Origin: Cyanidioschyzon merolae
Lineage: Eukaryota
Assembly: GCA_000091205.1 (NCBI GenBank)
Contig: AP006492.2
Reading direction: 5' to 3' (one strand)
DNA: 64,000 bases
The notes below the pieces were generated by a model. It did not search any database and was not told the DNA's origin. It saw nothing but the letters and a program-made list of their open reading frames with translations. Below are positions 2,468 through 57,239 of this stretch, one piece after another. How positions within the stretch are numbered: the first letter of the stretch is position 1; each line of letters begins with the position of its first letter. Made by a program: the position numbers and the translations under genes.

Positions 2468-3619
2468 GCAAGATGTTTAAGCCAATGGCAAGTGTGGGTC
2501 CTCGAAACTCCACCTCAAGCTAGGTTTTGGCACAGCGTCGTGACTGCACCGGGGAGCCGTTGCTGCAATAAAGAGAGTGCGGCAATATCAGTCGTGGATT
2601 CCGGAAGCGGGGGCGCTTCTTTCATCTGGCAACAGTAAGGATTGTATTGGACGCAGACGCGAGTGCACAAGGTCAAAAAGTTTAAGACTTTATGAGCACG
2701 AGCCTGCGGAAGTGTGAGCCCAGAAACTGTAGAGTAGCTGTAGGACCTTACGCTTCGAGGCAGCCTCGGCTACACTTTCCCATGAGCTTCAACTGGAACT
2801 TGCCTGCTCTGTGGACCTTGTACAAGGAGACAATACCTTGGAGTTTCCCGAAAATCTGCACGATTTCGGTGGGAGCTGAATACTCATCAGAAGAACGAAT
2901 AAACGCAGCTCCCTCATTCACTGAAACTGGCTGGTATACCAAGCCCAAGAGATGCAAAAGGGCGCACTCCGAGCCGAAAGTCTGAATAGTCTGTGAAACG
3001 CCAACGCAAGTCTTCGCGGAGCCTCTGCCGCACTCCAGCCGTGTTCGATGTTGACCAGAGTGCTTAAAGGCTGCTGAGCGCCCCTGTGAAAATAGTAAAA
3101 ACGCTTGTTCTTGCACTGCTCAGCTGCAGGCGCAATCTACTGCACAAGCCTCATGCTTCCGACCAAACGCATTCTTTAGCAGTTGTGCACGAAATACAGT
3201 GCCAGCAGGCCACTGAGCATACCTGCGAAAACTTCAAAAAGCTTCTGTGTGCGCTGGTCTACAGCAGAAGCTATCAATCCAAGCACACACCTCTTACATT
3301 AGCTCTAAACTCAAAGTTCCGCAACCGTGAAAAAGCTCAGCAAACGCTGAGTTTTCAATACACCCACGAAGTTTGCTCGTAACAGGTGCAAAACTATACT
3401 AGAGCAGTCCGCACTGGCCTGCTCCACGTGTGCTCTGGTAGCAGCACCTAAAACTTCGCCTCTTCGACAAGCCCGCGCTCCGAATGCATTCGACCCAGCA
3501 TCACGGGTTTCATTGCACAAACAGTGTGCTTTCGAGCCTCGTGACACTTTTGCCTCATCAGCTAGAGGCAACCGGTCTGGACGTGAAAAACCTTTGCAAC
3601 TTTTCAACAGCACAAACTT

Positions 3620-5146
3620 ATGCTCCCAGCTAGCGTTGGAGGATCAATCAGCTTGGAAACAGACAACCGTGGCGAGCGCACCGAGCGGGCTGCACGGAGA
3701 AGCTTCCGAGGTCGCCTAGCGTTCCTAGGTCCCAAACTTGGGGCTTGGGGACCCACGCAGAGCTGTTCGGCTGCTCCAAACTGTGCGATATCTGAAGCAC
3801 AGCCACGGAAAGGAGCTGGTCGCGGGACGGCTTACCGGCAGGGGAACTCTCTGCGGAACGTGAGGTTCGTTTTGAACGCGAACCAGGAGACGGGCGCTGT
3901 TGGACCAGCGGAAGCCCCCCATCGACGGCTGTCTAACTGGGGAGGCCTTGGCGGCGCATACGACACAAAAGTCTACCCGGCCAAGAGTTTGTGCTCTCAC
4001 TGCGGCTTGTGTGATACCCGCTACATCACCTATGTGCGCGACAGCTGCGCGTTCCTGAACCAGCACATTGCAGAGCTCGAGCAAAAGGTGCATGGACGCA
4101 GTCGCGCTCTGGATTCCGAAGATGAGCTCTATTTTGGTGTATTCCAGAGCATGCTGGTTGCACGCAAGAAGAAGCCTATTGCTGGCGCCCAGTGGACAGG
4201 CATTGTTTCATCGCTTGCTATTGCAATGCTAGAAAGCGGTCTCGTTGAGGGTGTGGTGTGCGTCCAGAGCAGCAAGGACGATCGTTTCAAGCCCGTGCCG
4301 GTAATTGCACGCAATCGAGCTGAAATCTTAGCGGCTAGGGTGAACAAGCCGACGCTGTCACCAAACCTGTCCGTGCTGGACGCAGTAGAACGAAGCGGTA
4401 TCAAACGTCTGCTTTTCATTGGCGTAGGCTGTCAGGTGGAAGCGCTCCGATCCGTTCAAGATCGAATCGGACTCGAAAAACTTTACGTTTTAGGGACTCC
4501 ATGCGTGGATAATGTGACGCGAGCCGGGCTTCAAAAGTTTCTCGATACGACCTCATCGTCACCGGAGACTGTCGTCTACTATGAGTTCATGCAGGACTTT
4601 CGGGTCCATTTTAAACACGATGATTCCGTGATTGGAGGCCCTGGAAGAAAGTGGGACGAAATCGTACCTTTTTTTGCGCTGAACACACAAGAGTTGAAGG
4701 AAGTTTTCGCTCCATCATGTCTATCTTGTTTTGACTATGTGAATGGTTTAGCGGATCTCGTGGTGGGTTACATGGGGGCACCTTTCGGATGGCAATGGCT
4801 TGTTGCACGGAACGAAACCGGACTGGAGATGCTAGAGCTCGCCCGACAGGTCTGCGGTCTGGAGGAGGGCCCCGTCGACGCATGCGGCGATCGACGCGCT
4901 GCTGTCCAGCAGTCGATCACTGCCTACGATCGAGCGCTTACCCTGCCTCGATGGATCGCTGAGTTTTTGGCCATCATCATCGGTAAGATTGGCCCAAAGG
5001 GTCTGGAGTATGCTCGCTTCTCCATCGACAGCCATTTTACCAGAAATTATCTTTACGTGCGGCGCCGATACCCGGAGAAGCTCGATGCTCATGTTCCCGA
5101 GTACGCGAAGCGTATCGTGTCCCAGTACAAGTTGCCGGATACATGA
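3620..5146 (+). CDS. HCAR: 7-hydroxymethyl chlorophyll a reductase / F-type divinyl reductase family Fe-S flavoprotein (FrhB-like), with a probable ~110-aa N-terminal transit peptide
   Basis: ATG at 3620 confirmed. From CSHCGLCDTRYITYVRDSCAFL onward the protein has HCAR/Slr1923-type motifs (GAQWTGIVSSLAIAMLESGLVEGVVCVQS, LLFIGVGCQVEALRSV, LYVLGTPCVDN, APSCLSCFDYVNGLADLVVGYMG, GPKGLEYARFSIDSHFTRNYLYV), compared from memory with plant HCAR. The N-terminal region is R/S/A-rich and presequence-like. Confidence 0.85.
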   Translation: MLPASVGGSISLETDNRGERTERAARRSFRGRLAFLGPKLGAWGPTQSCSAAPNCAISEAQPRKGAGRGTAYRQGNSLRNVRFVLNANQETGAVGPAEAPHRRLSNWGGLGGAYDTKVYPAKSLCSHCGLCDTRYITYVRDSCAFLNQHIAELEQKVHGRSRALDSEDELYFGVFQSMLVARKKKPIAGAQWTGIVSSLAIAMLESGLVEGVVCVQSSKDDRFKPVPVIARNRAEILAARVNKPTLSPNLSVLDAVERSGIKRLLFIGVGCQVEALRSVQDRIGLEKLYVLGTPCVDNVTRAGLQKFLDTTSSSPETVVYYEFMQDFRVHFKHDDSVIGGPGRKWDEIVPFFALNTQELKEVFAPSCLSCFDYVNGLADLVVGYMGAPFGWQWLVARNETGLEMLELARQVCGLEEGPVDACGDRRAAVQQSITAYDRALTLPRWIAEFLAIIIGKIGPKGLEYARFSIDSHFTRNYLYVRRRYPEKLDAHVPEYAKRIVSQYKLPDT

Positions 5147-18476: not shown

Positions 18477-21400
18477 CTAGCATCCGGAATCCATGCCGGC
18501 TGCGAGCCATTGCCGTAACGTGTCCCCGAATACCGCCGGCAAAGCGGCAATCTCCTCTACAATGACATAGAAAGGAAAGGGAAAATCTTCCAGGTAGCGT
18601 CGCACCTGCATGCGTCCACCCGGGGCAAAACCGACCTGCTTCATATCGAGAACAGAGGTACGCCGGACCGCGCTCGACGCCTGCTGCTCTTGTTCTCGAG
18701 TGCCAGCAACCTGATCCAATATGAAAAACACGATCCGCAGACGTTGTGCATTCGCTTCTCGAATGAGCGCGCGGAGGGCGTCTCGCTCTCCTAGTCGCCC
18801 GTCGGAAAGAATCAGCAACAGCTGCCAAGAATCGATCACACCGGCTTGCTGCTCCCGTGCCTCTCGGAACAACGCCGACGCACATTCTAACAGAGCGACC
18901 ACATTGGTCGCCTGCTGCTGGAACGTAAACTGACCAAGCAGCTGATCACCAACAGAGCCAGCGGCGGGTATTCCGGCGTGTAAGGAATGCACGACTTGTG
19001 CATCGCAACCGAAACGGATAACACCCAGATGTGCCAGTTCGAGTCGCTGCAGCGCCGCTGCAACCACCACCAGAGACTCTAGTGCCAAGCGAGACGCACC
19101 TGATTCGTGCATACTCGCAGAGTCGTCGACCGCAACAACGATATCGTATCGACGACGGTCTGGACGAATACGACGCATCCAGATACGATCGCGGGTGTAG
19201 TTGCTGGCCACATAATCAATGAGACGACGCATATGGAGCCGCTTCCCGGTGCGAAAGTCGCCTGCAAAACGCGTCATTTGGTTGTACTCGAGGACGGGTT
19301 CCAGTCGACGGCTGAGGTGTGCAATCGTCGCCTCATGAGAACGTTCAAGTGCGAACCAGGTGATCAAATCAGCATCAGCAGCCGCTTGTTCCAGCGAGTA
19401 TCGCGTATGGTCCGCGTCCATGTGCTGTGGTGCGATATCCTGGTTGTCATCCTTGTCGTTTTCGTCGTCGCGATGATGCAGGGACTCTTGGCGTTGCGTT
19501 GCGCGCTGGCGTTCAGGTTCTGGTGTCTTCGCGGTAGACGTCTGGCGTCCTGGTGACGCTTCCGCTGGTGACAGTGTCGACGACGCGCTCCACTGTGCAT
19601 TGCGATGGCTTGCAGCTGGTACCACCAGGTCGTCGACATTCGAACCGGTCATCTGCTGCACCTGCGGCTGATGCGGCACGCCCGTTGGATCCTGGTTGTC
19701 GCTCCAGAGATCGTCCGTCAACGCAGGCATACGATGTTGTTCATCTGCCGCAGCTGGTTTGTTCTGTTCCAACGAAGTTGATGTTTCCCCAGTGTACGGG
19801 TATGGCAAGTCAAGGGGTGTTGCGGTTGGCGCGGCTCCACTAGACCATTCTGCTGCTACGCTTGACGCAACATGAGCCTGCCGGTCCGGAGCGAGTGACA
19901 CCGCCGCCTCTGCTGCATACGCGGGTGCGCCTTGCGCCGAGGCGCTCCGCTGCTCTTCGGTGCTTTCCCAGGATGCTGGCTGGGGCGGCGTTGTCCAGTG
20001 CATAGCGTCCTGGCTCCAGATCGTCTCCGGCACATTCCTGGCTGCGAGCGGCATCGTTGTCGCAGCATCGACCTCGGTATGAGCCGCTCCGGGCCTCTCC
20101 CTGGGATTTTCCGATACCGCTTGCATGACCGGTGCCTCTGCGGATGCTGGAAGCGTACCTGACGACGCGGCTGCGGCTCCAGTTGCTGCTGCGGATTGCG
20201 ACGGTGCACTTGCAGCGTTTCCAGACTCGCCTCCGGTAGCCAGTTCGGGGAGCGCAGCATTGGCTAGTATCGAGGATTCAGAGACGGGCGAGCGGCCTGT
20301 GTGCTCTCTCGTCTCCGAGGTATCCCGAGCGTCAGACTGAGACCTCTCGGCATCTGCGGGAGACGCGTTCATCGTATCTCCATTGTCGGACAGAGCGTCC
20401 TCGTCTGAATGCAACGCGCTCCTCGCTTCGGCCTCCTCCGAGGCGTCAACAGAGACAGAGTCGACAGCAGGTTCGTCGCATTCCCAGTCTTCAGCGAATG
20501 GCAAGCCTTCAGATGCCTCTGACACCCTATCCGGAGACGAGTTGCCGTCCGGATGCACCAGGTCCTCGAGGATGTCGGGAGCGTCCTGCTCGGGCTCGTT
20601 CAGCGACGCTTCCGGGCTCATGGAGGGTTGCGCAGGCCCCGTGACTGCACACGGTAACCGCGGGGCAGCTTCTGCATCCACGGTGCTCTCGTTGCCAGAT
20701 GCAACCACCTCCGCTGGTGCATCTGTCATCGAGTCGGGTGCCGCTTCCTCCATACTCGTCGCAGCTAGAGCTGTTGCTGAGGTCGCTGTCCTGTCAGCAG
20801 GCAACGCGCGCTCCTCCGGGCAGGGCGTTGGTGCAGTCTCCGTCGCGGGCGGCGCTTCCGTGCCCCCTGGGTTGTTCATGTCACCGTCGACGTCGATGTC
20901 GTCTTCTGGGGCTTGCCCCAGAGTCTCGTTCTCTGTAAACGGTGCCGAGAACGCCGCTGTGGTGAGCAGCTCCTCATTCGATTCGAGGTCATCAGAGGAG
21001 CGCGGCACGCCCTGCTCCGCTGCACTATTCGTCGCTCTGTCGGAGGCGAAGAGCTCCTCACCAAGCTCGGATGCTGCCAGGTCGGCGGAACAGTCACGAG
21101 CATCCGCATTCAATGCTCCGGTGTCAGCAAAGCCCGCTCCCTGGCGCATCACATCCTTACCAACTGCATCGCGCTGTGCATCCACTGCTGCATTGTGAAG
21201 CAGCATCAGCGAACGATCCGCAAGACACAACAAAACCTGAACGATACGCACAAGCGACCAGTGCAGACGCCGCAACATGGCCAGTTTGCGCTCAAGTGCG
21301 CCATGCTGGTGCTCAGAGACATTCGCAGTGCCGTGCACTTGTCCCAGGCACAATACAAACGCTTCGCTTGACGACGGACGCCAGTGCAGGAGCTCCATCA

Positions 21401-24400
21401 GTGTCCAGTCCGGCGTTGCAGTCGGTGTCGCCGTCTGGCACTCTGGAGACGCTCGAGGGCTCGCTTCGGGGTGGCGTTCAGACGCGGGACCCTCGTTATC
21501 CCGACGAGAGTCTTCGGATACTGGAATTGGACCCGCCTCCATTTGGCCATTACCCCGCAGCGATGCAGGCACTCGTCGCTGGAGTTGGAGTCGGAGCCTT
21601 GCAACTTGCTCCAGAGCACATCGGTACAGTTGCGTACGCAATGCCGTTGCCGCAGCACTTGTCGTGCGAGACGTGCCAGACTGAAACGTACGCAGCAGTT
21701 GCTCGAGGTCGGTTGCGCTGCTTTCGATGCCGTCCCAGTCGTGCTGATGGAGCTGACGCCCAAGTTCCGCCGCCAAGGCCGCAAAGCGAGCCCCCAGTGA
21801 CGCAGCGTCTGGCCAACAGCGACACAGTACGGCCAGTTCCAGCGCAACACGGCGAGTATCCATTGTTGAGACAGACGCTTCATCGATTATCGAATATTCG
21901 GCAGCATGACGCTGCGTCTGTGTATCCAGTTCCGTGACTGGAGCACCACGCCCCGGGACCGCTCCCTTCGACAGCACTCGAGTCGCGTCGTGCGCACAAG
22001 TCCAGCTCGCGACCGCCTCCGAGTTCGAAGGCGACGTTTCCGCCGCTGCCGCTGCTGCTGCTGCGCAACGTACGGATGCTTGCGTCTGGACTTGCACAGC
22101 TGGATGAGCATGCGCGATCTGCCAGGTTTCGCGTTGGTCAGCGAGGTCGCTGAGCAGCCCGCGCACCAACGCCAGCAACGTAGCCACGGTGCGCAAGCCT
22201 CGCAGCTCTGCCGGATCCGTAGTAGCCGTCAGCTGCTCCCAGAACTTGGTATCCACCAGCAGCAACATGTCCAGCACATCGAAAAGAGCTGCATGATCGT
22301 CGTCGCCGTCGTCCGTATTGCTCATGTACGGTGTGTTTGGCTGCTGTTGCTGTTGCTGTGGCTGTTGTTGCGTCCGAAGACGCTCCGCTTGTCCCAGGGG
22401 GTATCCCCAGGGCGCCCGCCCGTAATAGAGCACGCCAGCGGGCCAGTGCAACCGCAAAGGCTCTCGCAATGGACGCTTTCGTATCCTCATTGGACGCAGC
22501 AGTTGAAAGATAGAGCGATAACAACGCTCTATAGATGCCCAACAGCACTTGTTCTGGTGCGCTAGGCGCTCCAGTTCCCTCAGTGCAGCCAACGACGCCT
22601 CGTGTACCAGCGATAACTGCTCCAACGCTGGTCCAGCTGCCTTCACGTTGGTGTCCATGAACGATTCTTGCGTCGAGCTGACCAATGCGGTTTGCGAACG
22701 CTCCAAGAGCTGCTTAGCGACGCGTTCACGAGCTCGCTGCCAGAGCGACTGCACACTGCTGTCCAGCAGGTGGTCCAGGGCTCGCCACTGCTGGCGCTCC
22801 TCCTGCTGCAGCTGCTGGACTGCTGCTCGGTAGCGCTCCCAGTCGGCAAGCTGTCGCCACGGTCGCTGCATCTGCATCCCGAAGCGCAGTCGCTGCAGTT
22901 GCCACTGGGGGAGCTGTTTCTGTTGAAGCTCATCAATCGCTTCCTGCACTATCTCGCAGTATCGTACGTAGTAACGGTAGACAAGTACCAGTTGCGCTTG
23001 GATAGCTTGCAAGCGAGGCTCCAGCTGGCTACCGTAGCGCGCAAGCAACCGCCACAGCTGTAGCAACGGAAAGACATATCCCACGGCGAGCGTCTCCATG
23101 CCCTGTCCACAACAGACGAGCCACTGGGGCACACGCTCATCGCCGAGGAGCATCTCTGGGTCTTGTCCAGCGCTCGTACGCTTTCCCATTGCATCCATCA
23201 ACGAGCATCCTGCCCTGGACTGTTCAGAGACTGCGGCGCTCTCGGCGAGCGTCGCAACCTGCAACCAACACGGGAGCGTGTCGATGACCCGCTTCGAATA
23301 GCGCAGAGCACGCTCTTCACGTTGCCAACGAGTCTGGGCGAAACAAGCGAGTCGCATCGAGACTAGCAGCGAGCCGAGCTGCTCCCAAGTGTCGCGCAGC
23401 GCACCATTAGTCGAATCATCTGCATCGGAGAAAGCACAACGCTGGGCAATCTCTTGTGCCAGGGGTTCAAGGAGCTCTCCCAGGAGCAGCTCGAGCGCTT
23501 CCCGCTCCCGGCCAAGGGCTCGCAATTGTTCGCTTCGCTTGGAACAACTATCCCAGCGCGTCGCAAGGTGCATCCAGAGGGCTCGGTCCGGCTCTTGACG
23601 CGCCCAGGCACGCAGCTGGTCACCCAGGCTAGAGAGCGCTGCTCCGTAGCGCCACGTAGGTTCGGCTGCGCTTCCATGCAGCGAGGCACTGGACTCTGCA
23701 ACCGGTCTCTGCCACGCAGTCCATAAATAGGGCAGGGAGTGTGGATGCTGGAGGACGCTCCACCAGGTAGTTGCCGGTTGGATACGCAACAACTGTATGG
23801 ATGCCACCACGTAACTCCGCAGAAGCGCTTCATAGCTGTGCTTTTGCAGTGCTGCGAGCACTTGAGCAGGGAGCTCTTGCGTACAACTCAAAGCTTCCAT
23901 TCCGATGAGCAGCAGCGCGAGAGCTACGACCACACCAGAGCACCACTGAGTCGTTTTCGTATCCACAGAGGAAGTACCAGGGGCAGCAGTGTTGACCAAT
24001 TGAGCCAACAGCCCGGGCAGCGATTGCCAACAGGTGCTCCCTGGCGGTACTGCTGGGTGCTCGCTCGAGTTCCAGCGTCGACCGCAGCCACCATCCGTAG
24101 CTATCTGACCAGAAGCAATCGCATTGCGCTCCGAGAGTGCTGCATTCCGTACAAAAGCAGTACTGCATGCTATCTGTCCAGCAGCAAGGACGTCGATCTC
24201 CGAGAGCACTGCATTCGGGACAGAAGCAGCACCAGTGGGTATCGCTAAAGGGACAGGTAGTGCGTCCGCCCTGCGCTCCAAGTCCTTAATCACGCTCACA
24301 TACGAATCCGAAGGCGCTACTGCTGCTGCTGCTCGCTGCGAATCTCGTGTCCCGTGAGTTGCCTCCAGAGACAGCAAACTGTATTGGTGCCAAAGACGCA

Positions 24401-27400
24401 ACGCTTCCCATTGTGGGGTTTCGTCGGGATCCAGGTCCATTCGAGCACATGCAGTGCCGGTTGATGCGGTGCGCTCTGGCGAGCCTTGCCGCAGTGGCTC
24501 TAGTTCGGACTCGAAGAGGCGCCTACAGTGTGCAAGCGCCTCATCGGAAGCTTCCGCGGCTGCAACAGCACCTGCTCGACTCCACGGCATTCCAGCTGCT
24601 GCAGCAAGCGTTCGCCAAGCCTCTTGTGCGGACGTTTCCGGAGCCGCTCCATTGGGAATCGATGCAGACGCCTGGGCGCGTCGTTCATCGAGACCAGGAA
24701 CACCTCCGGCAAGCACCACATCCAACAAGACTGCCCAGGCATGCCAGAAACGGGTTTGTGCGCTTTCCTGTCTACAAAGCAGTTGCTGCAACGAAACTAG
24801 CAGCCGTCGAGGTGCTCGAGCAAGGCGCACTGGTGCCAACAGGCCGCCTCTCGCTCCAAGTGATGGCTCAGGCTCGCGCTCAGACGCAAACACCGACTCG
24901 AGAAGCAACAACATCCGCGGCCTCCAGAGCGTCGACCAGTCCAGTGCGTCGGTGGTGCACATCCCAGCGACACTCTTTTCGGCATCGAGAAGCAGCCTCT
25001 CATGGTATTCCTGGTACCAGTCAAGCACGACAAGTCCGGCGGTATCATGCAGGGCGTGAAAACGTCCACCTGGCAGCAGTGCTTCCGCTGCTTGCAGTCC
25101 CTCCAAAGCCCCCAGGCGTTCCGCTGCACTCCAGACGTGTGTCCAGCCTGCAGCGGATTCTCGAGGAAGCATTCGGAGCAGCGGTTCCTGCTGCTCCCTC
25201 CAAGCATGACCGTACGCGAGTGCCGCTTCCAACGTCGGTACCGATGGGCGATAAAACCTACGCGCTCTAGCCTCGGCGCGTAGAGCCGCAAGCTGTGCTT
25301 CCGACAGGTCCACACGACGAAGGAGACTTCGATCTGCGGACCCAGGCAGCGTACAGCTGTAGCCGTTAAAGGCCTGCTCCACAATGCGATCATCACGCTG
25401 ACGCAGGGCCTCCATCCACGGGAGCAGCTCCTCATCCAGATAGCCATATACCTCGGCAGGATCGACCACTGCAGGCAACGACGGCATGCGACTCGCGGAC
25501 TGCTCGGTTTCCGAACGACCGTGCTCTTCGATGCCAAGCACCGGTGCAGCAGTCGGATGTTGAAAGCGACTCGCTGACTGCCCGGTTTCCGAACGACCGT
25601 GCTCTTCGATGCCAAGCACCGGTGCAGCAGTCGGATGTTCAAAGCGACTCGCGGACTGCTCGGTTTCCGAACGATCGTGCTCTTCGATGCAAAGCACCGG
25701 TGCAGCAGTCGGATGTTCAAAGCGAGGAATGCGCCACCAGAGCACCGCATGTCTCTGGGGTACAGTTCCAGGAGCCGTCGTACCTCCAGTGGTCGCAGGC
25801 GCGTTCCGAGAGCGACCTGCGGGCCCCGGTGCGCCCCGTTGAGCGTCCAGCGTCGGCACTAGACCTCGTTCCCAGAGTGCTTCCCAGAGATAGGCATCGA
25901 GCGCGTCGGCGGGCGTGCTAGTGCTGGGCTTGATATGCTGGGCGTCATTATAGGCCCCAAAGTCGTACTGCCGCTGCAACAAGGCATCGGCGAGGCAATG
26001 AAACGCGCATGAACCCGACATGAGTGACTCCCAGTGGTGCGGTAAACCGCAGCAGGTGCGCTGCGGGTCGAAATAACGCTCCTTGGCCTGTTCGCTTGAC
26101 TGCATGGCGTGCAACGTCTCCGAGGCCTCGCTGTCGTCCAGCAGGTGCAGCGCCCAGCACACGAGATGCCAAGACAGCGCTACCTGACGAAGCGCACACC
26201 GCACAAACCAGTCGTTTTCTCGTTCGGGAGCGCCCAGCGCAAGCGCTACCCGCATGGTGGCAACCACGACCACGAGAGGCCATGAAAAGCGCACTAGCCA
26301 GTTGTTCAGCTGCATCCAACGGCGTTGCAAGGCTCCGCGTTCCTGGGTGTTCGCGAAAGCAGCCTCGTGGCTAAGAAGCCTCTCGCTTGCACACAGCAGA
26401 CCCGCTAGATCCATCAGCACAAACCAGGCAAGCCATCGTGGCGTGGAACGCGGAAGCAACGCACTCACTGCGCGCTGTGCGGGTTGCTCAGCAAGCCAAC
26501 GAGTGCGAACGCTAGCATCCGTCGTAAAAGCAGCAACAGCAGCAGCAGCAGCAGCAGCAGCAACAGCATTGGCTGGTGTGCTCTTCTCGACTGCTGCGCT
26601 TTCGCCGGGGTCATCGAGCTCCGCATACGCCCCGTCCTGTTGGACCAAGGTATTCGATGTGAATGATTCACGTGCCGGATCACCGGGGGGCATCGTGAGG
26701 CGACAACATGCCTTGGCGGCGGCAGTCAACCAGTCCACAGAGGCCGCATATGCCGCCTCCCTGCCCTGGTTGTAGAAACGTTGCAAGAGACTGGATGCAT
26801 TCGACGTGTACGCATTCGGCAGGGCGCGTTGCCACCAGCACCAGCGCTCACCGCTCGACGAGCATACCTGGAAGCATGCAGCGTCAAGTTCAAGTGCGCT
26901 GCGTATTCTTTTCCAAGCTGGCTGAAACACAGCAACATACCCACGGGTGCTTGATCCAACTGGATGCATTATTGATGCTCGCCAGCGTGCATCGTTTCCA
27001 CTCTCCTGAAAGCGTTTTCGGGACAGGCTCTCGAGAGCATCCAGTCGAATGGCCGTAATCTGCTTCCTGAACGGGCCCTGTATCGTTGACGTCGACCAGG
27101 GAATCTGCCATGGCCAAAAACAACGCCAGTAAAGGAGCAACCACACGAGCACTTGCTGCTGCTGCATTGCAAAAGTCGATTCTGTGCCTGTATCGGGTAT
27201 GGGATGCAGCTGCAGCGTATCCAGTAGAGGTTCACCGCTCAATGACGCGGATCCGGTACGCCCAGGACTGGACGCTCCATCTCTGGGCAGTCGTGCAACC
27301 GGGGCAAGCGAACGAGATGCTCTGCGAAACGTCTCTGCGGAGAACGGCATCAATGGATACGATTCTGGTCCTAGACCGATGAGCGCGAGACGCAAACCCA

Positions 27401-30400
27401 AGTCCAGTGGCGAACTCATCATCAGGAAGAGGCCAGCAGCTTCCGCGTGCTGTCGCAGAGCCTGGATGACGCGGGTGCGGCACAGGTGCACCTGACGGCT
27501 CGCCCAAAAAGCCAGAACGTTCGCTTCGGTAGCGCGTGAAGGAGCGCTGCCCCAGATAGAGGCGTTTGTTGCATCCTCGTGACTCACCGCGGCTGGTGCA
27601 GACCGCTCACCTCCGACGCTGATGGCAACTGGCAACGTCGAGTTTTGCTCGCACCAGCTAGCGGCAGCTGTATCGAACAAGTCCAGCACCCGTGCCAATC
27701 GATCCAGATCGTATTCAATTACCGGACGTAATGGATCATAGAACAAGGAGATCGATGTTCGAGTGATACCGCTCCAAAGCGCTTCGGCAGGTACTTCGCT
27801 TGCCGCTGCAAAACACCGAGCATCCATGGGCTTTGTCGCAGACGCTGCTAGAGCATTCCCTCGTCCAGTAACGTCGCCACAAGGCAATGCTTGCCCCTGG
27901 AAAGCTGACGCTTGCGCGTGTGCTGCCTCGACGGGCTGCTCGGAAGCAGCGCTGCCGCCTACCCACAGCGTCAAACAACGGCTCATGAGCGCCTCGGAGA
28001 GAGCCGGGCTCTGACGTGCAGCACACCCTGCAGCAGCTTCCGAACAAGTTGCCGTCAGAAAAATACGACACCTGGGATGGATGACAAAGCGTCGGATGCC
28101 GGTGTCGCTGGGGTCATCGTGTTGGGATAACATTGGTGGCGCTTCGGGTACCGGGAGCTCGAAAACATCCTCCTCAAGCAGCGGATTCAAACGATCCAGT
28201 AGAGCCGGTGACAACGCCTCCACGTGCCGCAGTAAGAGCCAGTGTCCTTGTTCAAGGGCAGTCAGCAGGCGCGACGGACGCCAAACGAAGTACTCAGGGT
28301 CTTGTCTTGCGGACGATGAAGACGAACGTGCTCTACTGGAGTTGTGCAGCGACGACGAGGCGCATATCGTTTCCCTAGTCCGCTGCTCTGAAGCGTGGCT
28401 GTAACCCCCGAACAGATCCGTAATATCGGTTTGGTTGCTGAGCACCACCTCTGTGAGCGGCATCGCCAGGATTTGCGCCATACCCTGAACAAGGCTGGCT
28501 TTGCCGCAGCTCGCTGGACCAACCAGCAAGCAGGGCCATCGCTGGGTAACCGCTACGGCTAAGGCTGTCCAGTGGGGTGCCTGACAGGGCCTCCATTCCG
28601 GCACGCTCTCAATGGCGAGACTGGGTCCCAGCAGACCGTGTGCACTGGGACCCTGCACCTCGCGTCCCGCTACGAGAACTGGACCCCAGCAAAAGCACCA
28701 CTTCAAGTTGCGGGATGCGTCTGGTGTTTGGATCGTATCCCCGATGTACAAGTCAGAGGCGCTTGGCAGCTGTTTCGATTCGTGTGCGGATACTGTGCCC
28801 AGGGGAACCGCATCACCCGAGTTTTCCGCCAGAGCGTCCCCCGAGACTGCTACAGGAACGTTGTTCCCAGTCTGGAACTGGGGTGCTATCTCAGAGGATT
28901 GCTCTGCCTCCATGGAATGCGGGGTCCGTGAAGAATCGTCTCGAGTTAGCGACTGAGACAGTGGACCTGCGTGCATCGCTGTTGCCCTGTCTGCGCGGTG
29001 CTCGCTAGTGTTGTTGCGACAGAAAAGTGCACAAGGATCCATTTGGAGCCACTTTCGGAAAAGCTGCTCCCGGAACGCAGAAACATACCGAGGCTGCCAG
29101 CAACTGCACGTCACGAGCGATGCAGTGCCGCCCACAACCGGGTCTACGATACCGCAAAGGTGATCCTCCTCAGTGGATGCTGCATCCATCCGGAGCACAA
29201 CTTGCGGCAACGGGGTCCGAAACGACCACCAGGAACCATCTGGTGCTGGCGGATATTTCTCAAAAGTGACTCGTTTGCGCCCGGGTGTCGGTATAACTTG
29301 GTTTCCTGCATTTGACTCGCCGTTGTGTGCATCCAAGCGCTGCGTAACGAAAACTCGTGATAGAGAAAGCGAACCTTTTGGATGCTTTTCCGTGACCGTC
29401 TGTGAAAGGTATCCTTTCCGGTGCGCATGATCACTATCATCGTTATCCTTGTTCTTATCGTCATCATCGTCGTCGTCGTCGTCAGCAGCGGCAGCAGCAG
29501 CAGCACCGGATTTAGTTGCATGCTCATGGACTGCCGCCAATACACGAGATGCTTTCCCGGGTGCTTCCGCATCTCCAGGGCTTGACCCCTGCACAGTATC
29601 CTTCCCAAATACCGGATGCACGGCAACATCCACTTTGCGCCCTGTATGCGCAACAGCTAGAGTCTCGGGGACTGAAACCGCTCGTTGGGCAACCTCCAGC
29701 GGCATCGGCAGAAGCAGCTGAGCCCAGCTGCGCAGCGGCACACTGGGGTACGCATTCCAGAGCGTTGCCAGACGCAGCACATCCCGCATCGTGGCTGGTT
29801 GTGCATGAACCAGGCTCAACTTTTGAGGCCACCAGTGCGTCAGCTGTTGCAACACGTCAGGAAACTGCTCCAATGATGGAAATCGTAGCCTCAGAACCGC
29901 TTCATAGTCTGCAGCATCATAGTCGTCGCAGGGAATCCGCCAAAAGCGGTTCAGAAAACTGCGTGGGAGCGAACGCCGCCCCAGCGTCGTTCCCGCAGGA
30001 TTCTGTGTTGCGAAGAAACGAAAACCCTCGGATGCTGGAAGCGAAAGTGCAAGCTCCGGAACATGGAGCATTCGGCGATGATCCAACACTGCATTGAGAC
30101 CTTCGAGAACCGACTGACTCGCCAGGTTCAGTTCATCAACGAGAATCCAGTCGCCTCGCTCCATTGCCGTATACAGTGGACCTCTCCGGAAGCAGAACCC
30201 GCTGCCGTGGGGAACAAAGGTCCCCACCAGGTCCATCATTTCGGTGAACTCGCTGAGATTCACCCGGTGCACCTTTTTGGAGAGCGTTTCAGCAAGCGCC
30301 AAAACAAGTTGGGTCTTCCCGACCCCTGGCGGGCCCTCCAGCAGAACAGGTCGCTGATCCACAGCACGAACTCGCTCCAAGCGTCGCAGGTTGCGTTGCA

Positions 30401-31759
30401 CTGTGGGAGCAGTCCAGCACCAGGAAGGGCGCCCGGTCGACTCGACCGGTTGGCGCTGGTGCTGCAGTACTTGTCGCTCATGTTGCAGTTGCACACCATG
30501 TATCGCAACTGCATGTTCGTCTTGAAAAAGGCTCTGCAACTCGTTCCGAAGCGAGAGTCGAGACACTGGCGACAAACTCCAGGCACTCTCCCAGAAGGCT
30601 TCGAGGGCCTCGTAGAGGGCCGCAACCACAGCACCTCGATGTTGCTGTTGCTGTTGCTGTTGCTGTTGCGCTCGATAGATACGAATACAGGCCACGAGGT
30701 CCCGAATGCTCATAGCAGGCTGCTGGAGCATACGCTGACGCTGGAGAAGCCATTCGAGGGCGCGCTTCCAGAGTTCCAGCACCAGCGGTGGTTCGCTTGC
30801 CAACAGCTCCGCAGCCACCGGGAAGAGATCATCGCAGGAGCCCTCATAGGGTATCCATATCTCGGTAAAGCGATTCCGTATGGCAGCGGAGAGTTCCTTC
30901 TTGCCAAAGTCACCGCTGGGGTTCATACAAGCGAAGACGCCAAAGCCCGGAGCTGCCTGCACCTCTGGAAGGGGTTCACCTCCGTGTTCACTGAGCACCA
31001 GTTTGCCTGCGGGTTCTAGCACACTGTTCAGACGCTCCACCACAGCGTCGTCGATCATGTTGATTTCATCAATCAGGAGGAACGCACCTTGTCTCATCGC
31101 CGAGGTGAGTGCTCCATCTTGCCACTTGAAACGAGGTTTTCTCGTGCTCGTAACCACTTTGGATGCCGTTGTAGCGCAACTCTGCGGCACGGCAGTCGAT
31201 GGAGGATCGTTCAGGGCCTCTGTGCTCACTACGGGAACGTAACGACCTACGAGGTCCGCAGCTTCCGTATGACGATGACCATTCAGGGTATAGAGTGGCC
31301 GATTCAGGGCAGCAGCTAATACGGCACAGACCGTGCTTTTGCCGATACCGGTCTCACCAATTAGAAGTACCGGTTCTTGGTTAAGAATGGCGTGTAAAGC
31401 GAGTCCTAGTACGCGTTGCAGACTCGGAACCATGACGAGTCCCAATGCCTCCACCGCAGTTGCCTCAATGCGTTGCCACAGGAGTGTCCCCAACGGCACC
31501 GAGCCCGATCGATGCAACGCGTTGCCAGTTTGGTGATGTCGCTGCTGTTGCTGCTGCTGCGTCTGATAGACTTGATCTGCGCTTGCTTGGGGCTGCTGTT
31601 GCGGCATTTCTGCCTCATGGTCTTGATCTGCGCCTGTACTGTCGAATAGATTCAACCAGGGACACTGGTCGCGCTCAGGTAGCGAATCCAGCAGTTCCCG
31701 GAGCGTCAACGGTGGAAGCACATCCACCATCGCCATGATGGTATGCTCCCTAGTCACCG

Positions 31760-31801
<42 letters not shown>

Positions 31802-34800
31802 GCTCGCTTGTCGACGCTTGCACGCCACTGGACGTCCTCGCGTCATTTCGTGGTGACTCCTCCACGACACCCAGACCTATGTGTTGACAGAGTACTCTCC
31901 AGACAGCGTTACGTTCCGCGGGTTCGCGCAGGCGCTCCACCAGCAAACAACGACCGTGGAAACGTAGCGCTTGCCGATCACGTGCTCGCCGGTTGGCCCA
32001 GCGGAAGAGGTCCCGCGCGGTTACCAGGCCTTCTGTGCCGGCAAAAATGCGTTCCGTACAGCGTCGCAGTTGCAAGTCTCGCAGAATACGAACCATGGCG
32101 CTCGCAAAGCTAGCCGGTACCTCGTAACAGATACCGAGGATCTCTAGGAGCTCCTCATCTTGCATCTCGGGCAGATGAATGAGAACAAAACGAGAGCGAA
32201 ATGCCGGAGAGAGCATTTTGCGTCCACCATAGCGGCTACCACTGGGATTCTGGGTAGCAAACAGAGCAAACTGCGAATGCGCTTGTACCACTTGACCAGT
32301 TTCCGGAATGACGAGTTCACGATTTTCGTCCAAGAGTCGGTTGATGGACTCGAGAACGTCACCGGGAGCCAGGTTGAGCTCATCGAGAAGCACCCAGTGT
32401 CCGTGACGAGCAGCGCGCACCAAAGGACCCTCGACAAACCGTAGACACCCATCAGGTCCTACCAAATACCGACCCAGGTATTCGCTCACATCCGTGTGCT
32501 CGTGTTGATTGAGTCGAATAAGTTCGTGACCGGTACGCTCGGCCAGGTGCTTGACCAAGGCGGTCTTACCGACCGCAGTTGCACCCTCGATGAGCACTGG
32601 CGTCTTCTGGAGTCCATCGACCAGTGCCCGGGCGATATCTGACAGCGCTTTCACCATCGTTCGTGTACAGACGAACGTCGGGCTGCAACCTCGGGTACTG
32701 GCAGTGCTCAACGTCGCCGAGACACCTTTGGTGAGCAGCTGCTTGCAAGCAGCACCTGACGCAGCGGTAACGGAGTGTTCTCCCGGTACGCGGATCTCTC
32801 GTCGAGACTCGCTGGCGGGTACCTGAGCCTCACCATTCGTAGCTTGACTGGAGGCAGGCGAGGCACCTGGCTGTACCAGGGTGAGCCACTGGCCTCCGAC
32901 ATCGACCACTGGACGCTTTCGTGGTATCGCCGGTAACAGTTTCGTCACTGGCGTGAGCAGATGACGCTCGGGTGTTGCCAAGTCAGCAGCCAGGAGCTCG
33001 TACGCGAGATGCAGCACACGTTGGCGGCTTGTCTCCGCGAGAAAAGTGCTGAAACCAAGACAAGCGCCTTCGTAGAGAGCCCTGCGAGCATCTAAACCGC
33101 ACTGAGTGAGGTGCAGCGCCAGTCGCAGCATCCGACTGAGCGTTCGCAGCGGAAAACGGGGAGCAGTCCCGTCACCAGCGCTGGACAAACTCGAACGAGC
33201 CAGTCCGCGCACTCGTTGATAAAAAAGCACTACACGCTTCGTCAAAGAATGTTCGGTATCGACCCGAGCTTGACTCGGATGCAGACGCTTCGTAAAGAGG
33301 TGCTCCACCAGGCGATGCAGGTCCTCGTCTGGAAGCTCATCGTTCAACCGAATAGTCGTGAAACGTCTCTGGAGGCTCGCGGGTAACGCTTTCCGGCCAA
33401 TGTTGGTCTCCGGGTTCATACAGGCTACGAGTCGGAAAGCTGGATGTCGGTTGATGCTACTACTAGCCGACAACACAGCGACTTGGTTGCGGTGCCTGGG
33501 CGGCAACGATGCCGTTGGCGAGTGTGCTGTGCTTTCCCATATCGAGTCGAGTACGCCAGTAAGGCGTTCCAGACAAGCCGCCGGAGCTAAGTTCAGTTCG
33601 TCGAGGAGCAACAGGTCGCCACGACGAAGCGCTAGCGCCAACAAGCCTTCTCGAAAAGCGAAGCGCAAAGGCGGCTCTGCCTCCGCTGTTGGTGTCTCGC
33701 GGACGAGCACGTCGCTCTCGTCATCGTCCATTTCGTTGTCCAGGGCGGTAGCAACAGCGTCAGAACAATCGCTTCGGCTCTGCAAGTGCTGTCGTTTGTC
33801 CAGCCAGCGTACTTTGCGAGCACCAGATGTATCAATAGAACCGGAAGCCGGCTCGCTCGTGGACGTCACAAGAGTGCGGTGTCGCTTTCGCAACCGTGAG
33901 CGCTTTTCCAACGCTGTGGACCCGTAGGCATCCTCCATTTGCGAAACGAGTCGCTGTACCTGATCCCAGTGCGCCCGCTGCTGGTGACCTTCGAGGCGGC
34001 CACTGCTCGCCACTCTGGTAAAGAGGCTGCGGGCGAGTCGAACTAGGCGACTCGCGTCACGACGACGGGCCATTAGACGAAGCTGCAGGATCAAGTCCTG
34101 GTTACGATGCGTGGAGAAGGTTGTGCTGAATGCAACCTCCAGCTCATACGCCAAGTCTTGCAGGAGTTTGCGCGTATCGATCGGTTGATAGCCACCAAAC
34201 AGTTCCGTGAGGTCGCTCTGCTGCGACATATTGAGCACGACGAGTCGTCGTCCCAGACTTTTCGCCAGCTCCTGTACCATAAACGTTTTCCCGACACCTG
34301 TTTCGCCAATCAAGAGGACTGGCTCATCGTGATCGAGTGCTCTGTAGAGTTGACCTAGCGCCGTGCAGCTGGTCTCGGTGGGCGCTACGGCCATGCGTTC
34401 CAGCAGTTGCGGCAGAGGTGACTGCTTCCACGCTAGCGACCACCATATGCGTGCCTCATGGGCAGAGAGACTCCACTGGCTAGCCAGTGCTGTGAGCAGA
34501 GCATCCTCCACGTGCTTGTCTTCGGCAGCAGCCGGCGGCAACAGCGGTGCCAGAACATCCAGCGCATGGATGAGCGCAACCTCAGGAGTCAACGGTTCGG
34601 TGAGCGCCTCTTGGGTGCGCGCTAAACGAGTAGCCAAACGAACTGCTTCGTTCAGTCCCGGAAGCGGGAGATTGTCGGCGAGTTTCCGACAGCACGCCGC
34701 GGTGCAGTCTACGCTAGCGAGGACGCGATCGATCCACGGGGTGCAAGTTGGGAATCGTTCCCCGAGCAGTTGGTGACGCTCCGCTCTCGCATACGGTGGC

Positions 34801-36398
34801 AAGTCGATAACGAGCCAGCCGATCCACGAGGAAGACGTCTCGTCCGTGGTAGTAAGCGATGCTGATGTTCCAGTGCGAATCGCGAACAGCCGAAAGTCCT
34901 GATGCAATTGCAAGGCGAAATTTCGCCCTGGAAGTTCGAATACTGCACCAGGGCGTATCGAAGCGAGCTGCTGCACAACACTCGTGGCAAGGCGTCGGTT
35001 GGTAGCGCTCGAGCTGCCGAGGCCCTCGAGGACAAGCCAGTGTCCCTGGGCCAGGGCTTCACCCACAGGACCCAGTCGCCACTGGAAACGACCAGGGCCG
35101 CAGGGCGCAATGACTGCGATTGCATCCAGAAAAGCGTCTTCCTCGAAACCCAGCCGATCCCAGTAGAAGGCGGTGATGGGGCGCTTCAGCTCCTTCGCCA
35201 GAAAGTGCAGCAGAGCACGCTTGCCGGTTGCAGGCTCGCCTTGGAGTAGCACCGGGGCGCCATACACCACAGCAAGGTGTAGCAGATTGAGCGCTCGGTG
35301 ACGACTTGGGACGACGATGTAGCGCTGGTGACGCTGGAGCGCCCGCGAGTCGAGTACCGGATCCGCAGTATCTGTATCTGAGCTCGGGTGGCTCTCGTTG
35401 CGTCCCGTTGACGCCCCGTCTGGCCAGCAGGGTACTGGTCGAGAGCACTGGGCACTCATTCGGGTCCGTGCGTTCAGTAATGCAGACTGGGCACCGCCTC
35501 CATGGCAGGTAATGCCATTCACGGGAGGTATTGCGTGCTGCCCAGCGTTCAAGAGCGTCGCCGCAGCCTCGGGTCTCGAGCTGCCTTCACTCGCTGGGCC
35601 TGGGCACGGTGCACCCACAGGCCAGCGGGCTGCAGTTGTCGCTTGGGGTCCATCATGACGAGACAATCTCGTACCAGCCACTAATTCTCGCCAAGTTGCG
35701 AGCAGCGCATGCCGTGCTGCCTCTATATAATCGATTTCGTGCCAGAACATGGCAAGCACCGCATCATGCTGTCGTCCGTGTACGGGGCAGTGTGTACCAG
35801 CGGGACGGAAGCGAGCTGTGCAGCTGCTGCGAACGCCAAACGTCAAGCTCAGTGCCAAACAAGCCATTGTCGATCGAGCGTCCGGTGCGTTCTCGTGCCA
35901 GTCGGCAAAGCAGGGTCTGAGATCTACGCTTCGCTGAAGAACTGCCTGGCCACCGGCACTGTAGGCTAGCAACGCGACTTGCCGACTCGTGGCTCGCCAG
36001 CCTCTCGGTAAGAGAGCAGTGAGTGTTGCCACACCGCCGGTTACGGCGACGAGCCGCACAGCGGCACCGCTGTGCCCACAACTCGTGAGGTACGCAACAA
36101 GCTGCGGAAGGTCTCGGGGATCAAGTGCCCCCAGCAGGCTGTACACTCGATCAAACAGCGCTTCATCCAGAGCACTCACATTCGGACGGCGTTGGAGCTC
36201 GACGCTCTCCGCGTAGGCAGGCGCTGGGTACGAGTACGCCGCCGTTGCCCCCCGCAGGTCGACACTCGTTGCCGTAGCAGCCGCGGAGGGTGTCTCCGGC
36301 ACCACGTACGACTCCCAGAACGCCTGATCATCGAGTTGCTCCAGTGCGATCAGATCGTTGAGTGTTGCTGGAGACAACAGACCTACACCGCTCTCCAT
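18477..36398 (-). CDS. MDN1: Midasin (MDN1/Rea1), giant AAA+ ATPase of 60S ribosome biogenesis, ~5973 aa in a single uninterrupted exon
   Basis: The ORF top (36500) is a GTG; the first ATG is at 36398 (minus). Six consecutive AAA P-loops are present: LLQGEPATGKRAL (~35220-35250), LLIGETGVGKTF (~34285-34320), LIEGATAVGKTAL (~32565-32600), LLIGETGIGKST (~31331-31370), LLEGPPGVGKTQ (~30311-30350), LLVGPASCGKAS (~28493-28535). Then come a long helical linker, an acidic D/E/S-rich region (~20000-21100) and a C-terminal VWA/MIDAS domain with a DxSxS motif, VVAVDDSASM (~19105-19150). This architecture is diagnostic of midasin. Confidence 0.9.
25491..25724 (-). repeat. In-frame tandem repeat, 3 x 78 bp (26-aa unit RFEHPTAAPVLGIEEHGRSETEQSAS) inside the midasin CDS
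   Basis: Three adjacent near-identical 78-nt copies, with 2-4 mismatches between copies, are seen directly at 25491-25568, 25569-25646 and 25647-25724. Confidence 0.9.
26530..26567 (-). repeat. (GCA)n microsatellite, poly-Ala in midasin
   Basis: cagcaacagcagcagcagcagcagcagcagcaacagca; the protein reads AVAAAAAAAAVAA. Confidence 0.8.
29455..29516 (-). repeat. (GTC/ATC)n followed by (GCA)n trinucleotide tract encoding poly-Ala then poly-Asp (DDDDDDDDD) between the AAA5 and AAA6 P-loops of midasin
   Basis: The trinucleotide run is seen directly in sequence; the protein reads AAAAAADDDDDDDDDKNKDNDDSD. Confidence 0.85.
30641..30669 (-). repeat. (TTGCTG)n hexanucleotide repeat encoding poly-Gln (9 Q) in midasin
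   Basis: gttgctgttgctgttgctgttgctgttgc; the protein reads YRAQQQQQQQQQHR. Confidence 0.85.
31761..31800 (-). repeat. (AGC)13 microsatellite encoding a poly-Ala run (13 A) in midasin
   Basis: A perfect trinucleotide run on the + strand; on the minus coding strand the codon is GCT = Ala (protein ...EHAAAAAAAAAAAAASV...). Confidence 0.9.
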
Positions 36399-36672
36399 GG
36401 ATACCTGGAGCTCTCGAGTCACCTCAGAGAGAGCGCGCTCAAGTCGGAGGCAGCTACCCAGTGCGTACGAAGGGTTGCGTCGGCGTCCGCGTTGCGCCAC
36501 CGCAGCGTCGTGACGACGACGGCGGCCTAAGGACTACCTCGACCCGCATGCCCAGAGCGAAGAGGTTTACCTGTTGAGTGTTTCCGGGGCTGGAGCAAAC
36601 ACCACAGGTCGATCAACTTTTGGCTTGGTCGCTGTTTAGCTTCGTGCTTGCGTGATTATAAAGGCTTCATCT

Positions 36673-49334: not shown

Positions 49335-51959
49335 ATGGACCCGCTCTGCAGCGAATGGAACGGGAATAATAGCATGGATTTTCTGAAAAACTTGACCAAG
49401 GAGCAGTCGGTTGTGGTCCGGGCGCCATTGGAGCGCTCTCTACTCATTGCTGCGAGCCCAGGAGCCGGCAAGACGCATACGCTCTTGAGTCGGTTGGCGT
49501 TTCTTCTCTTGAGCGGAAAGCTGGAACCTGGGGAATTTGTTTTCTTCACTTTCAGCCGTGCTGGAATCGAAGAGGCTAGGAGTCGCCTTGAGAAGCACGC
49601 AGCTATCGAACCGCTCGTTAGAAGTGCACGAACGACGTTTCAGCAGGCGTTCCAGACGCTGCACAGCTTCGGTAGGCGGCTCGTGGAAAGCACCGCGGCA
49701 CCCGTTCTCGAGCGTACCTGCCAACGGCGAACGTTCATGAACGTCATATCGCAAACGCAAAAGCGGGCGATACTGCGCGAGGCAATAGAGCGTTATCGCC
49801 AAAGGCTCCAGACGAACTGGGATCGACTTCCGTCCTGCACCCAGCCCCTGTTTCATCAACTTGAGCTCAGCGCACTGGAGAGCGACGATGCCGGCGCCGA
49901 AATGGCGAAAGGTGCCAAGTCATCGGACGACCGTCTGGTAAAAGAGATTTCCGTTCAAATCGCTGAACGCAAAGCGAGGTTCATCTCGCCACCGACATTG
50001 GAACAAGTCGATAGCGCTGCGTTCCAGTGGCCTCTGCTCGACTTTGTGTACGCCCTGTACGAGTGCTGGTTGCAGCATCTGAACTGCATCGATTTCGACG
50101 ATATGATCGTTATGGCTGTACGCATCCTGGAGACGCAAGCAAATCCGCCGCATCTATTCCCGCGAGGCCTGCGCCTCATCCTCATTGATGAATTTCAGGA
50201 CACGAGCGCGAGCCAGTTGCGTCTGGTGCGTGCGCTCGCCAAACGCTACGCTTGCACTGTCTGTGCTGCTGGCGACGACGACCAGTGCATCTACGAGTGG
50301 CGACAAGCCCGGCCTCAGTTTATGACAGAATTTACGCGCTTTTTCCCCGATGCAGCAGTCATGTTCCTGCGGGAGAGCATTCGCTGTCCCGTGAATATCG
50401 CCTGTTGCGCAAATGCGTTGATCCAGCACAATACGCGTCGGCTCTGCAAGAGCATTGAACCGCTACCCGGATACGAGCAACTGCGGGTACGGATTATTCT
50501 GGGGCGTTGCGTTGAAGATGAGGTTGCGTATCTTGGACAGGAGCTTGTAAGATTGCACACGGAAAACGGGGTTGCCTGGAAGGATATGGCAGTGTTATGC
50601 CGCGTTGCACAGCCACTGGAGACGCTCCGCAAGTTGCTCCGCGAGCGCGACATCCCCTATGCTGGTGCCGAGCAGTCCAAGACAGTAGCTCGTAATCCGC
50701 AAAATGAGTACGGCATTCGCATGCCCGCGAGCAACCTCGATCATGCCTGGCGAGAAACGCTCATTCTGGCCAGTCCTTTGGTTAGTATGATCACGCTTCT
50801 GGTGAACGAGTACGATTTGCATTCGCTCGATGACGCCTGCAAGGCCTATGCGCCTTCTATGCATGCGCTCACCAGGACGTGCGTAATCGATGAGGCTCGC
50901 AAGCGCCGCAACATGCCGTTGATGCGGGTTGTGCAGTACATGGTCGAGAACGCCCAGGAATTCTTCGAGGGCGTCCCTGATCGCAATACGATGCCCATCA
51001 ACGTATCGCAGAACGCCAAAGCGAACTTTGTGCAAGCATCTGTCGCGCCTGGCAGGCTCGCGCCGGGTTTCAAACGTGTGTCGGAACCTGCACCCGATGC
51101 ATATCGTCCAAAACTCAGTCAGGGTCAGTGGAAAGCGTGCCGCGTGCTTCTCGCGGCATACGAGCGGCTGCTCGTCATTGCACGGGATCTGGGTCCCGAA
51201 ATCCGACTCGAGCGCATGCTGGAGGTCGCTCTGGAATTGCTGCCTGCTTCCGCTCCACAACATGGATGGAGCATTACGAACGATACGCGTCGCCTTCTTC
51301 GGCATCTTGCTCATCATGTCGATGAAGAAGCCCGTACCCGATGGGAATGGGCTTCAGGAGCTGCAGCGCTCCCGTCTCCGTCTCCATCTGCTGGGCCTGA
51401 TGCCGGTATATCCAACAATTACGGGACGGACGAGGAGCAACGGTGTTCGTTGCAGCCTGCCGCCGACTCGAGCAGCAAGCTACTCTACGGTGCACTCGCA
51501 AGGCGAAGACGGTGCACGCCCTTGGCACGGAACGAGTTGGGCATTCGATCGAGTGCCAGTCATCACGAAAAGGACTCGTGGCGCAAGCCTCTGCGTCAGC
51601 TACTGCTCTGTCTGCAGGATGCATGGCAGGAAGGCACTCGTGCATTCGCCCATGCTCGTCGCAAAGTGCCGCTAGATGCAGTCGCTGTATCTACGATACA
51701 CAACGCCAAAGGCAGAGAGTGGCCTTTTGTATTCATTTTGCGTGCGGTCCAGGGATCGTGCCCGTTGCTCTACCCGGAAGTCGATCTGGAGGAAGAGCGA
51801 CGCGTGTTCTACGTCGGGTTGACGCGGGCCCGCCAACAGTGCACGATCCTCGCGAGCGAACCGCAGACAGGCAAGCAGCAAGATCCGCAGCAGCAGCCAT
51901 CTATATTCCTCGATGAGCTCTCTGCGCCTCACTGCGAGCGGATACAATGGCGTCCAGTT

Positions 51960-51995
<36 letters not shown>

Positions 51996-57206: not shown

Positions 57207-57239
<33 letters not shown>

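Follow-up and report, generated by a model that had tools for sequence, protein, structure and literature searches.

The midasin (Rea1/MDN1) gene of Cyanidioschyzon merolae contains an in-frame tandem array of three 78-bp units, which we read, with a probability of roughly 80%, as a lineage-specific, nearly neutral coding minisatellite (in-frame variable-number tandem repeat, VNTR) whose copy number varies in nature. The array lies in a 64,000-nt stretch of chromosome 10 of C. merolae 10D, which was analysed as a whole and is referred to as the window. According to the scenario favoured here, a 78-bp segment encoding 26 residues would have been tandemly duplicated twice in a hypervariable, probably unstructured surface loop, either by replication slippage or by unequal exchange, possibly aided by a CGC microhomology at the unit boundary. 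Since 78 is a multiple of three and the loop seems tolerant of changes in length, the essential ATPase would remain functional. The array may then have drifted through mostly amino acid-changing substitutions, exchange of variants between copies and changes in copy number, so that 10D and the majority of wild haplotypes have three copies and a further haplogroup has one. How the duplications arose, that the loop is disordered and that the array is nearly neutral are inferences from the observations described below.

The repeat array

Tandem Repeats Finder reports a single array at 25488-25725 with a period of 78, 3.1 copies, 95% matches, no indels and a score of 441. It is the sole long-period repeat of the window, in which the other arrays have periods of 3-12 nt. 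Read in codon register along the minus-strand ORF, the array resolves into three head-to-tail units (Table 1) with pairwise differences of 4, 3 and 3 nt, against 49-62 mismatches to the flanking 78-mers. The unit or units are bordered by GGTGCTCTGGTGGCGCATTCCT upstream and CGCATGCCGTCGTTGCC downstream. A near-perfect in-frame 3 x 78-bp repeat had been described at this place in a first-pass annotation of the window, and its period, its coordinates and its 26-residue unit, which is the consensus of the three copies, are all borne out; so is the statement that the frame is kept, as each unit amounts to 26 codons within an uninterrupted ORF. That gene and repeat are read from the minus strand had been left implicit there.

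The encoded unit is acidic and rich in Ser, Thr, Pro and Gly. Among the 10D copies, four of five substitutions change an amino acid. Copy 1 carries G50A (Gly>Asp), which is common to all three-copy alleles seen, and G34T (Gly>Cys), which is private to 10D; copy 2 has A65G (Glu>Gly) plus a synonymous change, C72A; and copy 3 carries G7C (Glu>Gln), again common to all three-copy alleles seen. With up to three mismatches tolerated, the 38-nt core of the unit matches the window only at the three places of the array (0 expected from 100 shuffles), which rules out a mobile element or dispersed repeat within the window. The DNA folding potential of the array, considered as a driver of slippage, is ordinary (z-score -0.86).

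Table 1. Features of the midasin gene and its repeat array (window coordinates; amino acids numbered from the GTG).
Feature	Position	Strand	Details
Midasin (Rea1/MDN1) ORF	18477..36500	(-)	6007 codons from GTG; no intron; ~18 kb
AAA+ ring region	27891..35240	(-)	AAA_5, AAA_lid_5, AAA_lid_7; P-loop motifs; end at 27891 (aa ~2870) estimated by eye past the sixth P-loop, not a domain call
Gly/Pro/Thr/Ala-rich segment upstream of array	25725..25868	(-)	aa 3545-3592; unalignable with orthologues (MAFFT)
3 x 78-bp in-frame tandem array	25491..25724	(-)	aa 3593-3670; three 26-residue units (Tandem Repeats Finder, codon register)
Copy 1	25647..25724	(-)	RFEHPTAAPVLCIEEHDRSETEQSAS
Copy 2	25569..25646	(-)	RFEHPTAAPVLGIEEHGRSETGQSAS
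Copy 3	25491..25568	(-)	RFQHPTAAPVLGIEEHGRSETEQSAS
CGC codon (Arg3671) directly after array	25488..25490	(-)	same bases as at the start of the unit, hence a 3-nt microhomology at the duplication boundary
First conserved block past array	25221..25475	(-)	aa 3676-3760; AVVDPAEVYGYLDEELLPW...RVDLSEAQL...; homology to Cyanidiales midasins resumes
C-terminal MIDAS/VWA domain	18723..19145	(-)	aa 5786-5926; DDSAS at aa 5792 (DxSxS motif)

The host protein

The identity of the host as midasin, proposed by the annotation, is confirmed by its domain content. Pfam detects six stretches of AAA_5 (E 3.9e-105) together with the midasin lid domains AAA_lid_5 (67 bits) and AAA_lid_7 (47 bits; cut-offs 22.7 bits each), and P-loops are found at aa 421, 732, 1306, 1715, 2056 and 2661. 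An acidic, basic-poor region follows at approximately aa 5100-5700, where the D+E fraction is 0.12-0.24 across aa 5001-5800 and K+R makes up just 0.04 in the 200-aa blocks from aa 5201 to 5600. The C-terminal VWA match (21 bits, E 4.4e-4) is slightly below its 23.8-bit cut-off and contains the DDSAS sequence of a MIDAS motif. This arrangement of AAA+ modules, linker, acidic region and MIDAS is the midasin architecture (PMC11603028). Like the yeast and animal proteins (midasin/Rea1/MDN1), the C. merolae protein has an N-terminal region and six AAA+ modules ahead of a long, putatively helical linker, and an acidic region and a MIDAS domain behind it. Unlike yeast Rea1, with a linker of ~1700 aa, the C. 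merolae protein has one of ~2100 aa, and its sequence is highly divergent. Full-length metagenome orthologues of 5999, 6001 and 6003 aa have the same Pfam content as the 10D protein.

The start codon is probably the first ATG (Met35, at 36398). Counted from there, the array covers residues 3559-3636, in agreement with the earlier estimate of ~3560-3640. Its assignment to the linker behind the AAA ring also holds, as the sixth P-loop precedes the array and the acidic region follows it; about 690 linker residues come before the array, which places it in the first third of the linker.

Copy-number variation among metagenome contigs

Metagenome contigs were gathered via exact look-ups of neighbouring proteins and are 99.4-99.6% identical to the window. 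Three units are present in L006 (ENA ERZ27247228), L007/L015 (JGI 3300005573), L011 (ENA ERZ27247235) and L016 (JGI24721J44947). A single unit between the same flanks is found in L005/L017 (JGI 3300005861, 36.8 kb) and L008 (ENA ERZ27249350), in both cases identical to copy 2 of 10D. Only one and three copies have been observed so far, and a further metagenome scan returned three loci only, two of them already known. The one-copy and three-copy contigs are on distinct haplotypes, so that the suggestion of the annotation that copy number may differ between strains is supported in silico. The C. merolae midasin alleles also segregate for further in-frame indels of 6, 6 and 21 nt.

The one-copy state could instead be a product of short-read assembly, in which case every natural allele would have three units and the polymorphism would be unreal. 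Several contigs indeed end inside the array (L009, L010 and L012, by coordinates also L002 and L003), which marks the locus as hard for short-read assembly; short-read assemblies of C. merolae tend to break there. Moreover, L008 stops 120 nt upstream of its unit, and the full-length products on record differ from each other by 2-4 aa, not by 26 or 52. Against a collapse, the identical one-unit structure was obtained from two sources and assemblies, and L005/L017 extends 1.5 kb upstream and ~35 kb downstream of the unit. Over 3.5 kb downstream, both one-copy contigs carry the same SNP haplotype, which is distinct from 10D and from the three-copy metagenome group. In addition, the single unit contains G65 and A72 just 9 nt before divergence of the downstream flank sets in; this is so close that a k-mer (de Bruijn) collapse of any observed three-copy allele should not be able to yield it. 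Collapse of an allele whose three units are identical might nonetheless account for the one-copy contigs. On this contig-level evidence, the one-copy allele is probably real, and we regard a wholesale collapse as rather unlikely.

Age of the array and probable exchange between copies

The copy-specific markers G50A (copy 1) and G7C (copy 3) are common to 10D and all four three-copy metagenome alleles (4/4), which indicates that the triplication arose once, before these haplotypes diverged (pS about 0.55%). The same follows from the degree of divergence: the copies differ mutually by 4-5%, whereas the synonymous difference between 10D and the three-copy metagenome haplotypes is 0.4-0.6% over ~2400 codons of midasin (pN/pS 0.5-0.8), so that the triplication is older than the sampled haplotypes. 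Judged from these sequences, the triplication is young on the scale of the species, though not very recent. The first-pass annotation had taken the high identity of the copies as a sign of recent expansion. This stands on the species scale, given that the unit is absent from the midasins of two Cyanidiales lineages, and fails for a very recent event, given that G50A and G7C are shared across alleles.

As to concerted evolution, which had been offered along with recent expansion, strong homogenisation is not supported, because the units group by position and not by allele. The variants G65 and A72, on the other hand, occur in different copies across alleles: both are in copy 2 of 10D and in the single-copy allele, they are split between copies 2 and 3 in L011, and G65 is located in copy 3 in L016. 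This distribution suggests that copies have exchanged some variants. The one-copy allele cannot be derived from a 10D-like allele by a single unequal crossover, so that copy number may have changed either from one to three or from three to one.

Across copies and alleles, eight sites are variable, with seven nonsynonymous changes and one synonymous change. Such a 7:1 pattern, counted over eight sites only, is what would be expected without purifying selection on the sequence; as a background, the gene has a pN/pS of 0.5-0.8.

The linker loop and related Cyanidiales

The unit was sought in other midasins by an exhaustive HMMER search with aa 3101-4300 as query against 1.84 billion representatives. 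It returned three matches, i.e. a same-species fragment, the midasin of Cyanidiococcus yangmingshanensis (KAF6004501; full model KAK4529759) and a metagenomic Cyanidiales midasin (P0078, variant P0081). The linker region is thus homologous to an annotated Cyanidiococcus midasin. For Cyanidiococcus and P0078, the best HMMER stretch starts at aa 3676-3678, 5-7 residues past the array. The alignments show a conserved LSGWCAxRCLG upstream and LDPALVYxYLRDEALPW downstream, with an unalignable segment between them. In this segment, the Cyanidiococcus and metagenomic Cyanidiales midasins have ~20 unrelated residues in place of the unit, and the one-unit state is similar in length to these orthologues. 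The comparison of MDN1 orthologues that the annotation had recommended thus covers two related lineages, both of which are devoid of the unit. Querying a word-indexed protein search with aa 3301-4000 and with aa 3553-3710 yielded no cluster representative carrying the unit. The 90% cluster of same-species proteins is represented by a fragment not covering the array region, and these negatives are therefore informative only about other families, none of which has the unit.

From the alignments, the Gly/Pro/Thr/Ala-rich upstream segment and the array together appear to be one variable loop. The linker spans the ~2100 aa between AAA6 and the acidic region, and for the part that was modelled, AlphaFold2 predicts mostly helix, with low confidence (three-sequence alignment, mean pLDDT 37). 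Helices are predicted on either side of the loop, and the array and the preceding 48 residues form coil with the lowest pLDDT of the model (24-32). The model thus weakly suggests that the loop is unstructured. Neither sequence nor profile searches of the PDB linked the solved Rea1/Mdn1 structures to this linker, so that the linker subdomain holding the loop (stem, middle or top) cannot be named.

Two similarities to other families were set aside as chance resemblance. A phmmer search against the PDB gave a single match to Nog1 (8i9r_CH, E 0.003) at aa 3671-3750, where Pfam finds nothing of the Nog1 C-terminal region (NOGCT) even at E 10. Like the PCF11 RFEGP repeat (PF20844), the C. merolae unit is a short repeated sequence that starts with an R-F-E-x-P motif; in contrast to that repeat, it is far below the family cut-off (14.8 vs 43 bits, E 0.035) and is not a member.

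A possible function of the units

Every sampled haplotype has kept the array intact and in frame, and the array predates their split; a functional role could account for both observations as well. The units might then form an array of short linear motifs that is maintained by selection, with copy number tuning linker remodelling or midasin regulation. They could, for example, provide acidic Ser/Thr clusters (S-E-T-E, following the casein-kinase-2 pattern S/T-x-x-E) or a docking site for a pre-60S factor. The acidic, Ser/Thr-rich composition of the unit and its position directly adjoining a conserved linker block are in line with this idea, as is the mechanically essential nature of the Rea1 linker (PMC11603028). 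Selection for such a motif array is difficult to reconcile with the absence of the unit from both related lineages and with the existence of single-unit alleles. Furthermore, residues change at seven of the eight variable sites, some of them in the SETEQ segment (E>G, S>A), and no known family, the PCF11 repeat and NOGCT included, is recognised at its threshold. A functional array is hence improbable, and near-neutral drift of the minisatellite is preferred.

A bolder proposal would extend selection to the family: the inserts of Cyanidiales midasins may repeatedly make in-frame tandem duplications of 20-28 residues whose copy number segregates in hot-spring populations, with selection tuning the swing of the linker via loop length. 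Independently of this proposal, recurrence speaks for the minisatellite reading: the P0078 midasin has repeats of its own, namely four copies of a 20-aa unit in the AAA1-AAA2 insert and two of a 28-aa unit in an earlier linker segment, and P0081 has an extra duplicated 28-residue unit relative to P0078 (5365 vs 5337 aa). These duplications resemble the C. merolae array in that in-frame, near-identical units of 20-28 residues occupy poorly conserved inserts and two contigs differ in the presence of one such duplication. They differ in that the unit sequences are unrelated and are sited in the AAA1-AAA2 insert, the AAA ring and the earlier linker. No such repeats were found in the Cyanidiococcus midasin. 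If the proposal were true, midasin would be a naturally length-polymorphic mechano-enzyme in an organism with easy gene replacement, and the linker swing being tuned is the one that drives assembly-factor removal; we consider it very unlikely.

That the three-copy array of the reference is itself an artefact of assembly or cloning, the outcome that the annotation had named as its refutation, can be practically dismissed, since only the general risk attached to tandem repeats speaks for it, four independent de novo metagenome assemblies reproduce the three units with their copy-specific markers, and the 10D genome is a finished Sanger assembly with reads exceeding the 234-bp array.

Comparison with known repeats and significance

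With head-to-tail units within the range of ~10-100 bp that are in frame and variable in copy number among assembled contigs, the array is a coding minisatellite, and thus a further instance of a familiar type of variation. In-frame repeats of this general type were reportedly described for yeast cell-wall genes by Verstrepen et al. 2005. With coding VNTRs, the C. merolae array shares head-to-tail units of tens of bp, a length that is a multiple of three, high identity, a copy number that varies between isolates and tolerance in a functional protein. It differs in its host, an essential nuclear AAA+ machine of ~6000 residues in a eukaryote with an unusually repeat-poor genome. The leuA gene of Mycobacterium tuberculosis, which likewise encodes a housekeeping enzyme, has a 57-bp VNTR (PMC2704214). 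A limited literature search retrieved no account of tandem repeats at this position of the midasin linker.

The array leaves the understanding of ribosome biogenesis unchanged. It provides a concrete natural case in which the midasin linker accommodates 26-78 inserted residues at one defined position. Such a permissive site would help to tag or engineer Rea1/MDN1 in C. merolae, which is genetically tractable, and the 78-bp step offers a simple PCR marker for C. merolae haplogroups in hot-spring samples.

Genomic setting

Five neighbouring proteins are identical to the 10D GenBank entries BAM80213, BAM80214, BAM80218, BAM80226 and BAM80227 (CMJ090C). Exact look-ups gave no record for a neighbouring 438-aa protein or for midasin counted from Met35, and no tRNA genes were found within the window. 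By Pfam, other neighbours comprise an FrhB-like reductase, IGPS, TYW2, GARS and a beta-amylase, which fits an intron-poor red alga.

Length variation in midasin beyond the repeat

The midasin of a related metagenomic Cyanidiales lineage (P0078) carries in-frame tandem repeats of its own that are unrelated to the C. merolae unit, with one unit of 20 aa in four copies and another of 28 aa in two. A 28-residue unit that is single in P0078 is duplicated in P0081, its variant from the same lineage, which gives proteins of 5337 and 5365 aa, respectively. The difference between the two is a second case of a repeat with differing copy number within the midasin family. Further in-frame indels segregate among the C. 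merolae-like metagenome alleles (contigs L005-L016), namely AGCAGC and ACAGCC as well as a 21-nt insertion in L005, and these account for midasin products of 5999, 6001 and 6003 aa. Several codon-repeat homopolymer tracts are also found within C. merolae midasin (see table).

Closely matching contigs from several environmental assemblies in JGI, ENA and Logan (L001-L017) share 99.2-99.8% identity with the reference strain 10D over up to 20 kb when compared with the whole window, and their SNPs divide them into at least four haplogroups. These contigs would serve as population data for C. merolae.

Divergence of the linker

In an exhaustive HMMER search against 1.84 billion representatives, the linker (aa 3101-4300, window 23601-27200, minus strand) matched only three proteins, every one from Cyanidiales, and no match to it was detected in solved Rea1/Mdn1 chains either by sequence or with a three-sequence profile. 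The C. merolae midasin linker is extremely divergent. With phmmer, the conserved block directly following the repeat weakly matched Nog1 (PDB 8i9r_CH, residues 434-512) at E 0.003. Nog1, the nucleolar GTP-binding protein 1, is, like midasin, a pre-60S factor. Since Pfam shows no NOGCT match on this block, the resemblance is probably due to chance.

Other loci in the window

A helicase gene contains a perfect (CAG)11 tract, and the spread in length among members of the helicase cluster (901-917 aa) suggests another length-variable coding repeat. An FrhB/FdhB-type protein, encoded in this red alga at window 3620-5146 (plus strand), carries the source annotation ‘similar to coenzyme F420-reducing hydrogenase beta subunit’ (BAM80213). 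It resembles plant 7-hydroxymethyl-chlorophyll a reductase, although red algae are not known to contain chlorophyll b.

Positions of the conserved block, repeats, indels and tracts
Feature	Window	Strand	Residues	Remarks
Conserved block directly after repeat	25251-25490	-	3671-3750	
P0078 repeat, 20 aa x4			829-909	
P0078 repeat, 28 aa x2			2950-3005	
P0081 duplicated 28-residue unit			2158-2213	
Segregating in-frame indels	about 22000-24400			1.1-3.5 kb downstream of repeat (gene orientation); L005-L016
Ala13, midasin	31761-31800			
Gln9, midasin	30640-30669			
Ala7-Asp9, midasin	29457-29509			
Ala-rich, midasin	26529-26568			
Ala8, midasin	22040-22064			
Gln-rich, midasin	22342-22367			
(AGAC)11 microsatellite	57207-57251			
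Perfect (CAG)11	51960-51993			inside helicase gene 49335-52088
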